In this document: positions 36,793 through 50,258 of the stretch, one piece after another | Numbering within the stretch: the first letter of the stretch is position 1 | How the letters are laid out: each line of letters starts with the position of its first letter | DNA from: Candidatus Eiseniibacteriota bacterium | GTDB taxonomy: Bacteria; Eisenbacteria; RBG-16-71-46; CAVPCR01 | Assembly: GCA_963823555.1 (NCBI GenBank) | Contig: CAWGMA010000002.1 | Span: 32,001 to 96,000 of the forward strand | Length of the DNA stretch: 64,000 nucleotides | Reading direction: 5' to 3' | Position numbers and translations under genes: made by a program | The notes under the pieces: model-generated | What the model saw: only the letters and a program-made list of their open reading frames with translations | What the model was told of the DNA's origin: nothing | The model's database searches: none

Positions 36793-39168
36793 CTATCCCC
36801 GCCCGTTCGTCGCGGCGTCGAGGCCGGCGCGGAGCCGCCCGAGACGCGTCTCTCTCTCGCGTACGAAACGTTCGATCCCCTTGAGGATCCACTCCGGCGA
36901 CAGCCGGGCCTCGGCGTAGACCTCGTCGACCGCGCCGCCGGTGCGCCAGCGGTTGTCGAAATCGGAGGTCATCGCGTACTCGGCGGCGAGCGGGTTCAAG
37001 AGCCAGTCGATCATGGTCCGCCGGGCGCGGTTCGAGATCACGGTCGAATCGACGCGATCGGCCGGGGTCAGGACCTTCTCGCGGTAGGCCTCCGGTTGCG
37101 CCGCGAACAGCTGCGGGCTGATGGCGGCGACGATCTTGACGTTCAACCCCGCCTTGTCGATCTCGGGCAGGACCTGGACGAGGTTCGCCGTGGGCATCGT
37201 GCCCTGCACGATGATCGTCCCCATGCGCGGTTTGCCCGGACGAAAGTCGCGGAGGATGTAGGCCCCCTTCGCCGCATCGAAGTGCGAGCCGAGACCGAGC
37301 GCTGCGCGATCGGGCACCGTGATCGCGGGCCGCGTCAGATGGAGCGCGACGATCGGCGGACCCAGCTTGAACGCGGCCCCGAGCACCACCGGCACCTCGT
37401 TCGGCTCCCAGGGATGGACGTCGATGACGTGGCCGTCGGGGAAGAGCTGGGTCACTCCGGGCGCGAAGATGCCGAAGTGCGTGCGCGAGTCCTCGGCCGT
37501 CTCCGGTCCCGAGTGGCCCACGACCCACAGGGCCTTCCCCAGCTTGAGCGGGCAATCCTGAGCGAGCTGCGAGAAGAGACGCATGAGTCCGTACTTGAGA
37601 TACGAGAACGAGCCGTAGGTCGAGCACCCGGCATAGAAGCCAAGGAAGTCCTTCTCCGGCTCCGGATGCATGTTGACCGTGGCCATGCCCACGGTGATCC
37701 CGGCGTTCGTGAACTCGGTGATCTGCTGCGGCAGGAGCACCCCGTCGGGGTTCTTGTCCCACAGGTACCAGCCGTGGCCGGGGAAGTCGCCGTGCTTCTT
37801 GGCGAAGCCCGAGATGTTGGTCGAATCGGCGAGATCGGCGGCCATCGCCATGAACAGCGGCCGGCCGTACTTCTCGGCGCAGTAGGCGTTCACCCACGCG
37901 CCCCAGCTCGCCAGCGAGGCGCGGTTGGGCTTCTTCTCTCCCGGCTTGAAATAGAGCTCGGCCGGGTAGTTCTCGTAGTCGTAGAGCGCCGGATCGTGGA
38001 TCGGGTTGCGCTTGGGATCGAGCTTGAAGCCGCGGACCTCGGCCGGCACCGAGTCGCCGATCTCGACCAGGCGGTCGGAGACGTATTCCAGGACCTTCCT
38101 GTTCTCGCGCAAGCACGCTCGAGGGCGATGTTGAAGTTGTTCGCCGCCTGCTGCATGAGCGCCGCCCTGTCGGCGGGGGCCGGCTGGCCGAAGCCGTCCC
38201 ACTTGACGCCGTACTTGTCGGCGAAGACGCGCTTGGTCTCCCAGAACTTCTCGGAGTTCATGGGATGCGGCGTGCCGTGGCTCTTGTTGTCGTAGACCCC
38301 GTACTCGCGCCCCTTCCGCGTCTTCATGAAGGTGACGCCGGGGCGGCCGGCCGGGTTGTCGCCGTGCACCATCTCGATCAGGGCGCGGGTGATGTCGGGC
38401 CAGTGGCTCCCGTTCTTCGCCTCGTGGACATGCCAGCCGTAGGGCGCGAACCAGTCGTGCGGCGTGCCGTGAACCACGGTCGAGATCGGATTGTCATCGA
38501 TACCGAAGTCGTTCCAGTCGAGGACGTAGGAGAGATTGTCGAGGCCGAGGCCGTAGGCCGAGTTCTTGGTCTCGTGAGCGGCGCCGGCGGTGTGCCCGCC
38601 CTCGCCCTCGAAGGCGAACACCCTGACCTCCCCGGCCCCGGCGCGCTTGAGCGCGAAGGCCTCGCCGGCGGCCGCGGGCGAGCCGTGCCCCGAGGGGCCG
38701 GTGTTGAACTTGATGAAGAGGATCTTCCCCTCCATCTCCACGTGTCCCGGGAGGCCGCCGTGGCGGCGGAACACCAGCAGATCCTCCCAGGTGAGCTGGC
38801 GCTCGGCGGCGTTCGGCACCTCGTAGCGGCGATCCCCCGTTTCCTTGAGGCGCACCCGGAGCGCTTCGTTGAATGTGGCGAGCGTGGCGTAGATGAGCGG
38901 CGCTGTGTGCCCGGCCACGAGCACGAAGCGATCGCCGAAGCGCTTCTCTGGATGGCGGATGTCCCAGCGCATGACGCCCGCCGAGGAGCGTGGCGACGAG
39001 GGCGTGCACCTTGGAGCGGCTGCCGCCCGGATGCCCCGACTGGCGGTAGTTGAGCATCAGGTCGATGAGCTGATCGATGACATCCTTGACGACCTCCCAC
39101 TCGGTGAAGTGAGCGGCCTGCTCATCGTAGAGGCGCACGGCAACCCTATTCTCTGTCTTCACTTCCAC
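36793..39168 (-). pseudogene. tkt: Divergent single-chain transketolase-family enzyme with two apparent frameshifts (~38978, ~38115)
   Basis: SGHPGGS, DRFVL.AGH, LPGH, NTGPSGHG, KTRKG, ADL.DST, EDSRTH spread over three consecutive frames; SD AGGAG before GTG 39168. Confidence 0.82.
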
Positions 39169-39361
39169 TTGAATGCTCCTTGGCCGCGGGGAAGGATCGA
39201 ATGACCGGAACCGGCCGGCGAGGGACCGGGACTCATGGCGGCTCACGCGGCGGTTGATTCTAGCCCACGGCGGCGGTGGCCGCCAGCCTGGGCATCGCGC
39301 CGGCGGGGAACCGGGATGCCGCCAAACGAGCCACGCGCCCACCTCTGCTACCATCTGGCCC

Positions 39362-41368
39362 GTGCTTTCCCTCACTCACATCGGCCTCTCCTTCGGCGCC
39401 CGCGCCCTCTTCCGCGACCTCGACTGGACGCTCGGGGACGGCGAGCGGGTGGCGCTCGTGGGTCCCAATGGCGCCGGCAAGACGACACTGCTCCGGATCG
39501 CGCTCGGCGAGACCGAGCCCGATGACGGGCAGGTCGCGCGCTCGCGCCATGTGCGCACCGGCTACCTGCCGCAGGAGGAGATCCCGCTCGAGGGCGCAAC
39601 CGCGCTCGACTGCGCCCTCGGCGCCTTCGAGGCCGCGCTCGATGCCGAGCGCGAGCAGACCGAGCTCAACGAGCTCATCGCGACCCTGCCCGAGGGGCAT
39701 CCCGATCTCCCGGCGCTCCTGCGCCGCCTCGGCGATCTGCAGCATCTCTTCGAGCAGTCGGATGGCTACCGCATGCGCGCCGAGGCCGAGCGCGTGCTCT
39801 CGGGGCTGGGCTTGAGCCCACGGCAGATCGCCGGACCGCTCTCGGCGCTCTCCGGCGGCTGGCGCATGCGTGTCGCGCTCGCGCGCCTCCTCCTCGCCCG
39901 CCCGACGCATCTCTTTCTCGACGAGCCGACCAATCACCTCGATCTGCCCTCGCTCGCCTGGCTCGAGGAGTATCTGGAGGAGTTCTCGGGCACCCTCGTC
40001 ATCATCTCGCACGATCGCATCTTCCTCGATCGCACCGTGAATCACGTCTACGAGCTCGTCTCCGGGCGGCTCGAGAGCTATGCCGGCAACTACTCCTTCT
40101 TCGCCGTCGAACGCGAGCGCCGGCGCGCTGCCCTCCTCGCCGCGCAGGAGAACCAGGCCAAGCGGATCGCCGAGCTCGAGCGCTTCGTCGAACGTTTCCG
40201 CGCCAAGAACTCGAAGGCGCGGCAGGTGAAGAGCAAGGAGAAGATGCTCGAGCGCATGGAGCGGATCGAGGTCCGCGGCGATGACAAGAAGATCCGCTTC
40301 ACCTTCGCTCCGGCGCCGCGCGCCGGCCGGGTCATGATCGAGCTCAAGGGGATCCACAAGACCTACGGCGGGCCGGAGCCGGTCTTCTCCGGGCTCGACT
40401 TCAAGATCGAGCGCGGCGAGAAGGTGGCGCTCGTCGGTCCCAACGGCGCCGGGAAGTCGACTCTCCTGCGCATCCTCGGTGGCGACGAGCCGATCCAGGC
40501 CGGGGCGCGCCTCGCCGACGAGCGCGCCCAGATCGCCATCTTCGCCCAGCACACGACCGACGGCCTCGATCTCGAGCACACCGTGATCGAGGAGGTCGCG
40601 GAAGCAGGACCCGCCGAGCCTCAGGAGCGGCTGCGCGGGTTCCTCGGCTCCTTCCTCTTCCGCGGCGACGATGTCTTCAAGCAGGTGCGCGTGCTCTCCG
40701 GCGGCGAGAAGGCGCGGCTCGCGATCGCCAAGACGTTGCTCAGGCCCGTCAACTTCCTCCTCCTCGATGAGCCGACCAACCACCTCGACATGGCGGGCAA
40801 GGAGGTGTTGCAGGATGCGCTCGAGCGTTACGACGGCACGCTCGTCGTCGTCACCCACGACCGTCATCTCATCGATGCCGTGGCCAACCGCGTGATCGAG
40901 GTCAGCATGGGCGGCGTGGTGCGTGACTTCCCCGGGAACTTCAGCGACTACGCCGAGCGGCTGTGGCGCGAAGGGCGCCCGCTCCCTGGTTACCGCGAGG
41001 ATCCGGCGCAGGTGCTGGCGAGACGCAAGGAGGATGCGGACCCGGCCGGCCGGCCGGGCGCTGCCAGGGGAGCGGCATCCAAGACCGCGGCCGCCAAACC
41101 GGCCAAGCCACCGCGACCGGGCGCCGAGAAACGCGAGCGCGAGCGGGTGGAGCGCGAACGGGCCCGCGAGGAGAGCCGGGTCATGAAAACGCTCGAGGCC
41201 CTGGAGGCGCGCCAGACCGAGATCGAGACCGAACTCGCCACCCCCGAGGTCTACGCGAACGGCGAGAAGTCGCGCGATCTCATGCGCGAGTACGAGCGCG
41301 TGCGAGCCGAGATCGCTTCCCTCTGGGACCGCTTGGGTACCCTGAGCGGCGCCGCCCCGGCCGACTGA
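39362..41368 (+). CDS. ABC-F family ATP-binding protein (Uup/YheS-like)
   Basis: Two NBDs (GPNGAGKT/S, LSGGW/LSGGE, LDEPTNHLD); no TM helices; C-terminal coiled coil. Confidence 0.95.
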   Translation: MLSLTHIGLSFGARALFRDLDWTLGDGERVALVGPNGAGKTTLLRIALGETEPDDGQVARSRHVRTGYLPQEEIPLEGATALDCALGAFEAALDAEREQTELNELIATLPEGHPDLPALLRRLGDLQHLFEQSDGYRMRAEAERVLSGLGLSPRQIAGPLSALSGGWRMRVALARLLLARPTHLFLDEPTNHLDLPSLAWLEEYLEEFSGTLVIISHDRIFLDRTVNHVYELVSGRLESYAGNYSFFAVERERRRAALLAAQENQAKRIAELERFVERFRAKNSKARQVKSKEKMLERMERIEVRGDDKKIRFTFAPAPRAGRVMIELKGIHKTYGGPEPVFSGLDFKIERGEKVALVGPNGAGKSTLLRILGGDEPIQAGARLADERAQIAIFAQHTTDGLDLEHTVIEEVAEAGPAEPQERLRGFLGSFLFRGDDVFKQVRVLSGGEKARLAIAKTLLRPVNFLLLDEPTNHLDMAGKEVLQDALERYDGTLVVVTHDRHLIDAVANRVIEVSMGGVVRDFPGNFSDYAERLWREGRPLPGYREDPAQVLARRKEDADPAGRPGAARGAASKTAAAKPAKPPRPGAEKRERERVERERAREESRVMKTLEALEARQTEIETELATPEVYANGEKSRDLMREYERVRAEIASLWDRLGTLSGAAPAD

Positions 41369-46384: not shown

Positions 46385-46414
46385 TTGACCCGCAACTCCG
46401 CTTCTTGCTATGCT
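46385..46414 (+). promoter_or_regulatory. Sigma70-type promoter TTGACC-18-TATGCT with extended TG
   Basis: Near-consensus hexamers about 240 nt upstream of the UDP-GlcA decarboxylase ATG. Confidence 0.6.
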
Positions 46415-46654: not shown

Positions 46655-47752
46655 ATGCGGATCTTGGTGACTGGCGGTGCCGGGTTCATCGGTTCCCATC
46701 TCTGCGAGCGGCTGGTCGGCGCCGGCTACGAGGTCATCTGTCTCGACAACTACTTCACCGGCAGCAAGCACAACGTCCAGAAGCTGCTCGACAATCCCCA
46801 CTTCGAGCTGATCCGTCATGATGTGATCAACTACCTCGATATCGAGTGCGACCAGATCTACAACCTGGCGTGCCCGGCCTCTCCGATCCATTACCAGCAC
46901 GACCCGGTTCGCACCATTCACGCCAACGTCCTCGGCGTGACCAACATGCTCGAGCTCGCCAAGCGCACGCGGGCCCGCATCCTCCAGGCTTCGACATCGG
47001 AAATCTACGGCGATCCCCACGTACACCCGCAGCCGGAGACCTACTGGGGCCATGTCAATCCGATCGGCCCGCGCTCCTGCTATGACGAAGGCAAGCGTGT
47101 GGCCGAGACGCTGATGATGGACTACCACCGGCAGCACGGGGTCGACATCCGCATCGCCCGCATCTTCAACACCTATGGTCCGCGGATGGCGATTCACGAC
47201 GGCCGGGTGGTGAGTTCGTTCATCGTCCAGGCCCTGCAGGGCAAGCCGATCACGGTCTTCGGGGAGGGGAATCAGACCCGCTCCTTCTGCTACGTCTCCG
47301 ACATGATCGACGGGCTCATCGCCCTCATGAACACCGAGGGTGTGCAGCAGCCGGTGAACCTCGGCAATCCCGAGGAGTTCACCATCCTCGATCTGGCCCG
47401 GGCCGTGCTCGATCTGACCGGATCGACATCCACCATCGAACGGCACCCGCTGCCGCAGGACGATCCGGTGCAGCGCCAGCCGGACATCTCCCTTGCACGG
47501 CAGGCCCTCGGCTGGTGGCCTCGGGTGCCGCTCAAGGAGGGGCTCCTGCCGACGGTCAGCTTCTTCGAGCAGCTCGTCCACAAGATCCGGACGACGGGCA
47601 CCGGGAAGAGCGCCCTGCACGCGCGAATGAGCCGGACAGCCCCCGAGCGGCTCAAGGCGCTCGATGTGGAGAGCAAGGCCCCCGGCGGCGATGGCGGGCA
47701 GCCGGAGGAGCGAAAGGTCGGCGCCGAACGCCGCACCACCACCCGCCAGTGA
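46655..47752 (+). CDS. UDP-glucuronic acid decarboxylase (UDP-xylose synthase) family
   Basis: [48 protein letters not shown]; polar C-terminal extension. Confidence 0.93.
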
Positions 47753-47830
47753 TACCATTCAGTTCCGCTACGGCCTGGGTACCGCCCATGGATGTCGGCC
47801 CAGGCGGCGGACGCGTTTCAAGGAGGAAAC

Positions 47831-48670
47831 ATGCTGGGTGTGGGAATCGTGGGGGCAGGACGCGCCGGCCGGGCGCGGATGCGGGCCATCGAGGGACGCG
47901 ACGATGTCAAGCTGATCGGAGTCGCTTCGTCCCAGGCTGATGTCGGCACCCACCAGTTTGCGGAGCTCACGGCGAGTCCCGATGTCGATGCCATCTTCGT
48001 CTGCTCGGTCAATGCCGCCCATGCCGAGCAGGTGGGCGCGGCGCTCGCAGCCGGCAAGCATGTGCTCTGTGAGTACCCCCTCGCTCTCTCCCACGACGAT
48101 GCGGTCCGCCTCTTCGACCTGGCGCAAGACCGTGGGCGCGTCCTTCATGTCGAACACATCGAGCTCCTGAGCGGCTCGCAGACAGCGCTCCGGCAGGCGG
48201 CGCGGGGGCTCGGCCGGCCCGTCGACGGCCGCTATCACACCGAGGCCAATTCGGAGGGCTGGATCGCCGACATGCGCCTCGCCGGGTTCCCTTCGTTCTC
48301 CGGCATCTCGCGGCTGAGCCGGCTGGTAGATCTCTTCGGCCCGGCCGGAGTGGAGGACGCCCACCTCGATGAGTTGGAGGACGAGCAGCGGCTCGTGGTC
48401 GACCTGAGCTTCGTGCATGGCGGGCGCTGCCGGCTCGACTACCGGCGCGGGCGGGGGCTGCCGCGACGCGAGGACTGGGATATCCGCTGCGAGCGTGGCG
48501 CGCTCCGCACCTTGCCGCCGGTTCCGACCAAGCCGCTCTTTGCCACCGATCTCGACTTCTTCGTCGGACGCGTGACCGCCGGCGAGGAGAGCTACATCTC
48601 GGATGAGCAGATTCTCGACGTGATGAGCCTCGCCGAGGAGATCGAGATCCGATGTCGCGGCGTGCGCTGA
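47831..48670 (+). CDS. Gfo/Idh/MocA oxidoreductase closely resembling biliverdin IXalpha reductase (BVR-A)
   Basis: GKHVLCEYP, LHVEHIELL, GFPSFSGISRL, LAEEI; SD AGGAGG. Confidence 0.8.
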   Translation: MLGVGIVGAGRAGRARMRAIEGRDDVKLIGVASSQADVGTHQFAELTASPDVDAIFVCSVNAAHAEQVGAALAAGKHVLCEYPLALSHDDAVRLFDLAQDRGRVLHVEHIELLSGSQTALRQAARGLGRPVDGRYHTEANSEGWIADMRLAGFPSFSGISRLSRLVDLFGPAGVEDAHLDELEDEQRLVVDLSFVHGGRCRLDYRRGRGLPRREDWDIRCERGALRTLPPVPTKPLFATDLDFFVGRVTAGEESYISDEQILDVMSLAEEIEIRCRGVR

Positions 48671-48933: not shown

Positions 48934-49461
48934 ATGAACGTGAAGGAGAAGATCGCACGCCAGTACCACGCGGCGTTCGAGATGCTCGAGCGTGCCGTGA
49001 TCGCGTGCCCCGAAACGGCCTGGGATAGCCCGGCGCACGCGAATCGGTTCTGGCGGGTGGCGTATCACGCGCTCTTCTACACCCATCTCTATCTCCAGGA
49101 ATCCGAGGAGCACTTCACGCCCTGGAGCGGCCATCGCGGTGAGGCGCACTTTCTCGGCCGCCGCCCCTGGCCACCGCACGACCCGCCGGAGCTGGGCGCG
49201 CCCTACACCAGAGCCGAGGTTCTCGACTATCTCGGCTGCGTGAGGCGGCAGGTCGCCACGTGGCTCGAACCGCTCGATCTGGAGGGTTCATCGGGATTCC
49301 AGTGGTTGCCGCTCACCAAGTTCGAGCTCCAGCTGTACAACATCCGACACGTGCAGCATCATGCCGGCCAGCTCACCGACCGCCTGCGCAACGCGGCCGG
49401 TATCGGCATCGAATGGGTGGGCGCTCACCCCGGTCCGGCGCCGGAGGATTCGATATGCTGA
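48934..49461 (+). CDS. DinB-family protein
   Basis: FW..AYH.LFY and YNIRHVQHH.GQL. Confidence 0.85.
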   Translation: MNVKEKIARQYHAAFEMLERAVIACPETAWDSPAHANRFWRVAYHALFYTHLYLQESEEHFTPWSGHRGEAHFLGRRPWPPHDPPELGAPYTRAEVLDYLGCVRRQVATWLEPLDLEGSSGFQWLPLTKFELQLYNIRHVQHHAGQLTDRLRNAAGIGIEWVGAHPGPAPEDSIC

Positions 49462-50258
49462 GCGGTGAAGGCGAGTCCCGCGCGCCGATCACGGTCGAGC
49501 GGCTCGACGCCGGCCGGCGCGCCGACTTCTTCGCCCTGCACGGTCATCCGCCCTTCGACTGGTGCTTCTGTGTCGCCTGGAACGTCGAGTCATGGGAAGG
49601 TTGGGGCGAACGCAGCGCCGCAGAGAACCGCGCTCTTCGCGAGGAGATGCTGGCTCGAGGCCGTTGCGATGGCTACCTGCTCTATGTCGGAGACGAGGTC
49701 GCTGGCTGGTGCCAGTGCGGTCCGCGCGACGACTGGCCGAAGCTCAGGCTCGAGTTCGACCTGCCGCCGCGTCCCGACACCTGGGCCGTGACCTGCTTCT
49801 GCGTCCGGCCCGAGTATCGCCGGCGAGGATTGGCGCACGCGCTCCTGGCTGGGGTGCTCGCTGACCTGCGACGCCGGGAAGTCGCGCGAGTGGAGGCCTT
49901 CCCCCGCCCCGGCCGGCACCAGGACGACGAGGTGTGGACGGGACCAGAGAATCTCTTTCTTCGCGCCGGGTTCCGACCCGTGATGGCGGGCCGGCGGCGC
50001 TCGGTGATGTCACTCGAGCTTTCGTCGCGAGCGGCCAACCCGATCGAGGTGACCATGAGTCCTGAATCGACCGTGCTGCGGCGGTCCCGCGACAAGATGA
50101 TCGCCGGGGTTTGTGCCGGGATCGCCGAGAGGCTCGGCTGGCCTGCGAATCGCGTGCGCATTGCGTATGGGGTGCTGTCCATTCTGAGCGCGGCCTTCCC
50201 CGGCATCCTGGTCTACGTGGTGCTGTGGATCGCCATGCCGGGGCCGGAGGAGCCGTGA
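49455..50258 (+). CDS. GNAT acetyltransferase read in frame into a PspC domain (internal ATG at 50055)
   Basis: WCFC, GWCQCGPR, CFCVRPEYRRRGLA; then LRRSRDKMIAGVCAGIAE...YVVLWIAMP; no stop between the domains. Confidence 0.8.
   Translation: MLSGEGESRAPITVERLDAGRRADFFALHGHPPFDWCFCVAWNVESWEGWGERSAAENRALREEMLARGRCDGYLLYVGDEVAGWCQCGPRDDWPKLRLEFDLPPRPDTWAVTCFCVRPEYRRRGLAHALLAGVLADLRRREVARVEAFPRPGRHQDDEVWTGPENLFLRAGFRPVMAGRRRSVMSLELSSRAANPIEVTMSPESTVLRRSRDKMIAGVCAGIAERLGWPANRVRIAYGVLSILSAAFPGILVYVVLWIAMPGPEEP

Follow-up and report, generated by a model that had tools for sequence, protein, structure and literature searches.

A biliverdin reductase A family protein in a Candidatus Eisenbacteria genome and a probable non-cyanobacterial affinity of the animal enzyme

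The stretch of DNA analyzed here (hereafter the window) comprises 64,000 nucleotides of the genome of a Candidatus Eiseniibacteriota bacterium (assembly GCA_963823555.1, contig CAWGMA010000002.1, positions 32,001 to 96,000 of the forward strand) and encodes a 279-residue protein, denoted P0001, that belongs to the biliverdin reductase A (BVR-A) family of oxidoreductases. A first-pass annotation, made from the sequence alone, described it as an animal-type BVR-A homolog. The host genome (4.62 Mb, 67% GC, 92.5% complete) carries a single copy of the gene, the features of which are as follows.

47831..48670, + strand: P0001, BVR-A-family oxidoreductase, 279 aa; intact open reading frame with an ATG start
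47820..47826, + strand: Shine-Dalgarno-like AAGGAGG, 4 nt 5' of the ATG, read from the sequence
47837..48157, + strand: N-terminal NAD(P)-binding Rossmann domain, PF01408, aa 3-109 (Pfam)
48269..48523, + strand: biliverdin reductase catalytic domain, PF09166, aa 147-231 (Pfam)
48311..48313, + strand: codon of R161, which aligns with the essential catalytic arginine (Synechocystis R185, human R172, rat R171)

The start at 47831 is preferred over an in-frame ATG at 47792 because of the AAGGAGG motif 4 nt upstream, and the orthologs of P0001 begin at the same residue. The ratios of nonsynonymous to synonymous substitution rates (dN/dS) against all four Eisenbacteria orthologs are 0.13, 0.18, 0.33 and 0.20, so that the gene is under purifying selection; together with the GC content by codon position (0.76/0.47/0.84), these values identify it as a real gene.

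The membership of P0001 in the BVR-A family is confirmed. Pfam assigns 76.8 bits to PF01408 and 38.6 bits to PF09166 (Biliv-reduc_cat), compared with a cut-off of 24.5 for the latter, which answers positively the profile comparison suggested in the first-pass annotation. Among the sequences in the PDB, the best matches are rat (E = 6e-34) and human (6e-33) BVR-A, both aligned end to end across the whole of P0001, as the claimed collinearity implied, followed by Synechocystis BvdR (3e-26); the best generic Gfo/Idh/MocA match (1.5e-15) covers part of the chain only. All six motifs listed in the first-pass annotation are present, at residues 3, 75, 102, 152, 206 and 261, and EYP in place of the generic EKP is indeed found as E81-Y82-P83, a position that is aromatic in 0/7 generic outgroup proteins (K in 4, R in 3). 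The C-terminal half is nearer to the vertebrate form, as had been proposed, if modestly so (mean identity 28.9% vs 25.9% to cyanobacteria). An AlphaFold model (pLDDT 97.6) matches rat and human BVR-A with TM-scores of 0.90-0.91 in Foldseek, compared with 0.85-0.86 for BvdR and up to 0.85 for generic enzymes, and with Z-scores of 35.8-36.5 (rmsd 1.6-1.7 A) in VIA, compared with 34.2 for the BvdR complex and 31.4 for the best generic enzyme; solved biliverdin reductases occupy the top 10 Foldseek and the top 6 VIA positions. This fold match is only partly independent of the sequence comparisons because the 91-row alignment from which the model was built included vertebrate rows.

For phylogenetic analysis, 410 sequences of at least 240 aa were reduced to 254 by removal of those with at least 70% identity and analyzed with FastTree, and IQ-TREE (LG+C20+F+G4) was run on two hand-picked, largely different subsets, the first of 60 sequences and the second of 44, including 5 generic outgroup sequences; the sampling drew on the best 150 of 307 family representatives, and composition differs among the sequences. 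In the IQ-TREE analysis, the BVR family including P0001 is separated from the five generic outgroup sequences at 100/100 (99 in the 254-sequence FastTree), so that P0001 lies inside the BVR clade in the tree comparison proposed earlier.

The active site was mapped through sequence alignments to PDB entries, with 5B3T for Synechocystis and 2H63 for human BVR-A. P0001 carries H64, E81, Y82, H109, W144, S160, R161, R164, R206 and D240 at the active-site positions of BvdR; H64 corresponds to Synechocystis H84, E81-Y82 to E101-Y102 and H109 to H129, R206 occupies the site of K237, G10 is the equivalent of human G17, and C275 that of human C292 (matched in 15/17 sequences). The arginine of the SGISR motif, R161, which had been singled out as functionally important, is by alignment the same residue as human R172, rat R171 and Synechocystis R185. 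It is kept in 17/17 sequences of the Eisenbacteria clade, 43/43 and 65/66 of the two Myxococcota clades, 11/11 of the near-animal group, 17/18 and 42/42 of other bacterial groups, 15/15 cyanobacterial, 16/17 vertebrate and 1/1 Syssomonas sequences, and is found in 0/7 generic Gfo/Idh/MocA sequences. H64 and D240 are likewise kept in 17/17 sequences of the Eisenbacteria clade. Synechocystis BvdR binds two stacked biliverdins, and R185 is essential, with kcat/Km falling from 3.9 in the wild type to 0.1 in R185A (PMC5309722, Table 2); H84 and D287 are needed for activity, and T169A, S184A, R188A, K237A and R246A are near wild type, with kcat/Km of 3.9 for T169A and 2.2 for R246A (PMC5309722). Two residues of the BvdR pocket are absent from P0001, namely T169, replaced by I145, and R246 (R227 in human BVR-A), replaced in the sequence alignment by E214, which is adjoined by R212 and R213; in Synechocystis BvdR, both sites tolerate alanine.

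Taken by analogy with the characterized enzymes, P0001 is predicted to use NAD(P)H for the reduction of biliverdin, or of a related bilin, to a pigment of the bilirubin type, a reading to which we assign a probability of roughly 0.6. As in Synechocystis BvdR (PMC5309722), the hydride of NAD(P)H would be transferred to the central C10 bridge of a proximal bilin, the propionates of which would be held by R161 and R164, and R161 would provide a proton through a stacked second bilin. The bilirubin-type product likely would represent an antioxidant or pigment-scavenging step. The bilins themselves would likely be taken up or formed without a canonical heme oxygenase, speculatively from pigments of prey or detritus or from heme of the cell itself that is oxidized without an enzyme. 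Because BvdR and vertebrate BVR-A, both proven reductases, flank the root, with P0001 between them, bilin reduction is most parsimoniously taken as the ancestral activity of the family.

Several observations weigh against this assignment. Canonical heme oxygenase (PF01126) is found in 0/53 non-cyanobacterial carrier genomes (0/5 and 0/48) and in 2/2 cyanobacterial controls; the search covered 55 of the 76 carrier genomes, many of them fragmentary, and the 92.5% complete host genome contains frameshifts. The first-pass annotation saw no heme oxygenase in the window, and the searches of the whole host genome agree: none was found with Pfam, a custom hidden Markov model of 23 heme oxygenases gave a best E-value of 0.096, and tblastn gave no match. 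Phytochrome and ferredoxin-dependent bilin reductase were found in 0/5 carrier genomes, and no bilin gene is a conserved neighbor in the clade of P0001. The background rate of heme oxygenase is low, with 12/201 genomes in the phylum and 10/151 in one Myxococcota class. None of the 201 genomes of the phylum contains both a heme oxygenase (12 genomes) and a BVR-like gene (8 genomes), and in the Myxococcota class, where at most 16 candidates per genome were scored, the BVR-like gene is present in 22/151 genomes and heme oxygenase in 10/151, with an overlap of 0 compared with about 1.5 expected by chance. There is thus no positive link between the two genes, and exclusion is not proven. At the active site, E214 reverses the charge at the distal-bilin contact in 17/17 sequences of the Eisenbacteria clade, and S34-Q35 stand at the site of the human R45-R46 pair; human R45, R46 and R227 mutants have lowered activity (PMC12519219). 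Finally, the catalytic arginine is kept in just 0/5 Acidobacteria sequences and 3/18 sequences of the invertebrate clade; the family can therefore lose this residue, and membership is no guarantee of activity.

Some of these findings would also fit a different native substrate, such as a conjugated carboxylate or a non-bilin tetrapyrrole intermediate, bound in the same arginine-lined pocket, with biliverdin reduction recruited separately in cyanobacteria and vertebrates or being a mere side activity in P0001. Besides the lack of canonical heme oxygenase in the 53 carriers, such a substrate would account for the strength of purifying selection in cells that have no evident source of biliverdin, for clade neighbors that are unrelated to bilins (a BMP-type ABC transporter and alternative complex III), for E214 and I145 at the distal-bilin sites, and for the replacement of R164 by Q, A or other residues in 60 sequences from two bacterial clades. 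However, it would require two independent recruitments that arrived at the same stacked-substrate mechanism and the same arginine. Moreover, P0001 retains more of the proximal pocket of BvdR (W144, S160, R161, R164 and R206) than vertebrates do, and scattered tetrapyrrole genes adjoin the family elsewhere, acsF next to the Acidobacteria copies and ferrochelatase next to the family member at locus L170. A different substrate is the main rival reading, and we consider it rather unlikely.

The cells that carry P0001-like genes evidently make heme and use it with oxygen, given that ferrochelatase and heme-copper oxidase are each present in 5/5 carrier genomes tested. Heme synthesis would also fit the alternative that P0001 is a true biliverdin reductase coupled to a non-canonical heme-opening enzyme, either a HutZ/HugZ-like split barrel or an IsdG-like ABM protein, in a full heme-to-bilirubin pathway. 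The host genome does encode a stand-alone split-barrel protein of 160 aa (G000:C3:441628-442023, L229), with a weak HutZ match of 50 bits compared with a cut-off of 225, and ABM domains are found in 5/5 carrier genomes. However, the split-barrel protein is confined to the host (1/5 carriers), and the ABM domains are likewise present in 12/14 control genomes. HemS and DUF2470 are each found in 0/5 carrier genomes and Haem_oxygenas_2 in 1/5, the host not being the one, and the host genome contains no match to PF01126, PF00360, PF05996, PF14518, PF05171 or PF10615. HutZ/HugZ enzymes give non-IXalpha products. Products of this kind are also formed by IsdG-type enzymes (PMC7242693). Such a coupled pathway seems improbable; when it is counted together with the simple form, bilin reduction by P0001 becomes somewhat more probable than stated above, a fairly likely prediction overall.

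The trees bear on the origin of the animal enzyme. Animals form one clade in both IQ-TREE subsets (98/90 and 98/94), joined with moderate support by a protein of Syssomonas multiformis, which we take to be a unicellular holozoan (P0169, EukProt EP00128; 90/90, together with one metagenome protein, and 88/78); contamination is conceivable for the Syssomonas sequence, which derives from a transcriptome. The holozoa lie within a group of two Planctomycetota genome proteins and metagenome proteins (99/96 and 98/96), which itself lies inside a wider bacterial group (97/91 and 98/94). Cyanobacteria pair with Acidobacteria (100/99 without the outgroup, 91/77 rooted), and the rooted tree is split between these two lineages and all other bacteria with the holozoa (84/91), the clade of P0001 being among the earliest branches of the latter half. 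The approximately unbiased (AU) test rejects a holozoan-cyanobacterial clade (p = 1.2e-5 in the first subset, 9.4e-4 in the second) and a clade of holozoa, cyanobacteria and Acidobacteria (p = 0.022 and 0.0044). Quick trees of the separate domains also place animals apart from cyanobacteria (95 for the N-domain, 94 for the C-domain), and, by mean path length, the Planctomycetota group (2.1) and the clade of P0001 (2.5) lie nearer to animals than cyanobacteria do (3.9). The near-animal group includes 11 sequences, of which 3 have a known host and some of the others could be eukaryotic; a third protein named Planctomycetes falls in this group in the C-domain tree. A metagenome scan aimed at this group found 0 members among the best 52 of 80 loci classified, and the class search around the Planctomycetota carrier covered 2 genomes only.

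The span between R206 and F237 is 31 residues in P0001, has medians of 31-33 in vertebrates, Syssomonas and five bacterial groups, and is 47-48 in cyanobacteria, Acidobacteria and generic enzymes, with intermediate values in Myxococcota clade B (42) and invertebrates (41). The short span represents a shared derived deletion in the C-domain, in agreement with the tree. In the opposite direction, the R16-H64 span of the N-domain has a similar length in animals and cyanobacteria (57-59 residues) and is shorter in other bacteria and Syssomonas (47-50). The position of P0001 itself is less firm: the branch that places it on the animal side is only moderately supported (84/91), and the C-domain tree keeps it there, but the N-domain tree puts it outside the animal-containing group. 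A clade of holozoa and Eisenbacteria is rejected (AU p = 0.0073, first subset only), and P0001 is not the closest bacterial relative of the animal enzyme. The label "animal-type" therefore holds as far as the short C-terminal domain common with vertebrates and the animal side of the tree are concerned, which also bears out the proposal that the protein is more akin to the animal form than to that of cyanobacteria (rooted and C-domain trees); it fails as a sister relationship. The suggestion that the protein bears on where the animal enzyme came from holds in that animal BVR-A nests among non-cyanobacterial bacteria, but a special link of P0001 to animals was not borne out, the nearest named bacterial relatives being the Planctomycetota proteins.

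Altogether, animal BVR-A probably derives from the non-photosynthetic bacterial half of the family, with Planctomycetota-linked proteins as the nearest relatives, and not from cyanobacteria; it was possibly acquired before animals arose. A transfer of BVR from a cyanobacterium to an early animal has been proposed (PMC12519219, PNAS 2025), and the present trees contradict this scenario with respect to the donor and perhaps also to the timing. BVRs are described as broadly distributed across animals and bacteria in PMC12847894, the sampling of which may have taken in members of the P0001 group; the parts seen of PMC7242693, PMC13446030 and PMC10151467 contain nothing on the family of P0001.

Within the phylum, full-length relatives of P0001 are present in 8/201 genomes, including 5/5 of the host's own order; of the 35 matches in the phylum search (E <= 1e-25), 27 are generic and mostly N-terminal. 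The four closest relatives, with 61-86% identity, come from Candidatus Eisenbacteria genomes. Three other genomes of the phylum (L086-L088; G144, G138, G148) encode a separate subfamily with 35-38% identity to P0001, and the existence of two subfamilies implies that the family was likely gained in the phylum at least twice. In the wider family, 283 of 8000 candidate proteins match at E <= 1e-10, and 80 of 83 genome loci were retained; at E <= 1e-30, the 50% clusters have 307 representatives, the best 150 of which were covered. Animal and cyanobacterial members, as well as some generic enzymes, contribute to these totals. The named carriers are Myxococcota/Deltaproteobacteria, Planctomycetota, Acidobacteriota, cyanobacteria, Syssomonas and animals, namely vertebrates, corals, an anemone and molluscs. 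P0001 is therefore not a rarity but a member of a large family. Many of its bacterial members are labeled 'biliverdin reductase' by the JGI pipeline, so that the homology is visible in automatic annotation; a literature search in which few subscription journals were covered found no description of BVR-A homologs in Myxococcota, Planctomycetota or Eisenbacteria, and the radiation of the family in these non-photosynthetic bacteria is apparently undescribed.

The invertebrate proteins annotated as 'biliverdin reductase A-like' (from corals, abalone, chiton and snail; P0107, P0137, P0220, P0237, P0263 and relatives) mostly lack the catalytic arginine, and the pattern at the H109 site is lost or shifted in 15/18 sequences of the invertebrate clade; these proteins may lack catalytic activity or use other substrates. 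Proteins from records labeled Enterobacterales, Enterobacteriaceae or Klebsiella (L020, L029, L041, L048, L050, L052, L058, L059, L062, L066 and L068) nest among Myxococcota sequences, and the labels are likely wrong.

Upstream of the BVR-like gene, the window contains the following features.

46655..47752, + strand: gene for a 365-aa NAD-dependent epimerase/dehydratase, separated by 78 bp from the BVR-like gene
46385-46414: promoter-like site 5' of the epimerase gene, a consensus match only

The co-orientation and proximity of these two genes are compatible with P0001 being a generic Gfo/Idh/MocA sugar or nucleotide-sugar dehydrogenase that is a partner of the upstream epimerase or decarboxylase. 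The NCBIfam matches of P0001, 0/12 of which reach the cut-off, point in the same direction in that those below the threshold are to sugar dehydrogenases only, and the ESM Atlas scores Gfo/Idh/MocA clusters level with the BVR-A cluster (0.96-0.97), giving no information past the superfamily level. However, the NCBIfam matches cover the Rossmann half only, PF09166 is above its cut-off, the EKP lysine is absent, with Y82 in place of K/R, and the tree splits the BVR family from the generic enzymes at 100/100, so that this assignment was rejected as highly improbable. The co-transcription with the upstream gene that had been suggested also did not hold up: the two genes are adjacent in 1/4 nearest loci (L001 only), and unrelated genes lie upstream in L002, L003 and L004. 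The epimerase/dehydratase gene is probably a bystander, an operon with it is ruled out as a functional clue, and the earlier label of UDP-glucuronate decarboxylase is without confirmation by a curated model.

In the family at large, gene neighbors are kept within clades and not between clades. In one Myxococcota clade (L005-L016), a BMP-type ABC transporter lies 3' of the family gene in 12-14 of 76 loci. In another Myxococcota subclade, the gene is located directly 5' of alternative complex III-type genes, encoding a multiheme cytochrome c, a molybdopterin/Fe-S protein and NrfD, in 13-14 loci (L029, L030, L042, L047-L051, L056, L057, L059, L064, L070 and L072). The copies in Acidobacteriota (Chloracidobacterium/Blastocatellia) are directly 3' of acsF in 6/6 loci (L019:1583-3931, L022, L023, L031, L032 and L039); acsF encodes the chlorophyll-pathway cyclase (TIGR02029 above the cut-off), and the copies in phototrophic Acidobacteria possibly have an altered tetrapyrrole role. 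In a single case, ferrochelatase is tail to tail with a family member (L170:5856-6914, - strand).

Elsewhere in the window, a single frame (49455-50258, + strand) contains a GNAT acetyltransferase and a PspC domain and may represent two genes or a fusion. A large gene at 36793-39375 (- strand), presumably transketolase-like, is broken over three frames and is whole in L002. The cox1 and hemH genes of the host genome are also frameshifted (G000:C1:552981-554217; G000:C3:838651-839642), and these split genes imply that the assembly likely contains indel errors.

It has long been asked why vertebrates turn harmless biliverdin into toxic bilirubin and where this enzyme originated. The purifying selection on the catalytic arginine and the failure to find a canonical heme oxygenase point to the scavenging of environmental bilins or to another ancestral substrate. 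Tentatively, and with rather less than even confidence, we propose that BVR-A is of ancient origin in heterotrophic bacteria devoid of heme oxygenase, where it would reduce scavenged bilins in an undescribed pathway, and that it was passed from this radiation, with Planctomycetota-linked proteins as the nearest known branch, into a unicellular pre-animal holozoan. If true, an old bilirubin-making bacterial enzyme that arrived through such a holozoan would overturn the origin by transfer from a cyanobacterium to an early animal; already at the level of sequence comparison, the family of P0001 appears to contradict the published cyanobacterial origin of animal BVR-A. The compact P0001 of 279 residues, if active, could serve as a minimal natural BVR for mechanistic work and bilirubin biocatalysis.

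Compared with known systems, P0001 shares the Rossmann domain and the overall fold (Z 28-31) with generic Gfo/Idh/MocA enzymes, such as GenD2, KanD2, 1,5-anhydrofructose reductase and inositol dehydrogenases, but lacks the EKP lysine and possesses PF09166 and the BVR arginine. Rat BVR is reportedly also active on phycobilin precursors. Biliverdin reductases are widespread in mammals and many cyanobacteria, and the actinobacterial F420H2-dependent biliverdin reductases of the Rv2074 type likewise come from non-photosynthetic bacteria but differ in structure, mechanism and cofactor (PMC10608806). Synechocystis PCC 6803 BvdR (5B3T/5B3U/5B3V) has equivalents in P0001 of H84, E101, Y102, H129, W168, S184, R185, R188 and D287, with K237 represented by arginine and a TM-score of 0.85-0.86. 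Unlike BvdR, P0001 is about 50 residues shorter, lacking the N-domain insertion and the extra C-domain strands, has I for T169 and E for R246, belongs to the opposite side of the family root, and comes from a host in which no heme oxygenase, phytochrome or bilin reductase match was found. Vertebrate BVR-A (1LC0/1GCU rat, 2H63 human) differs from P0001 in the identity of about 35%, in R45-R46 and R227, which are S-Q and E in P0001, and in the loss of the W and the second R of the cyanobacterial pocket that P0001 keeps (W occupies the site of Synechocystis R188 in 17/17 vertebrate sequences); P0001, for its part, has no heme oxygenase partner found and does not represent the sister lineage of the animal enzymes. 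Nevertheless, the two share the collinear two-domain fold of PF01408 and PF09166, the equivalents of G17, E97-Y98, R172 and C292, with K219 represented by arginine in P0001, and the short C-terminal domain without extra strands.

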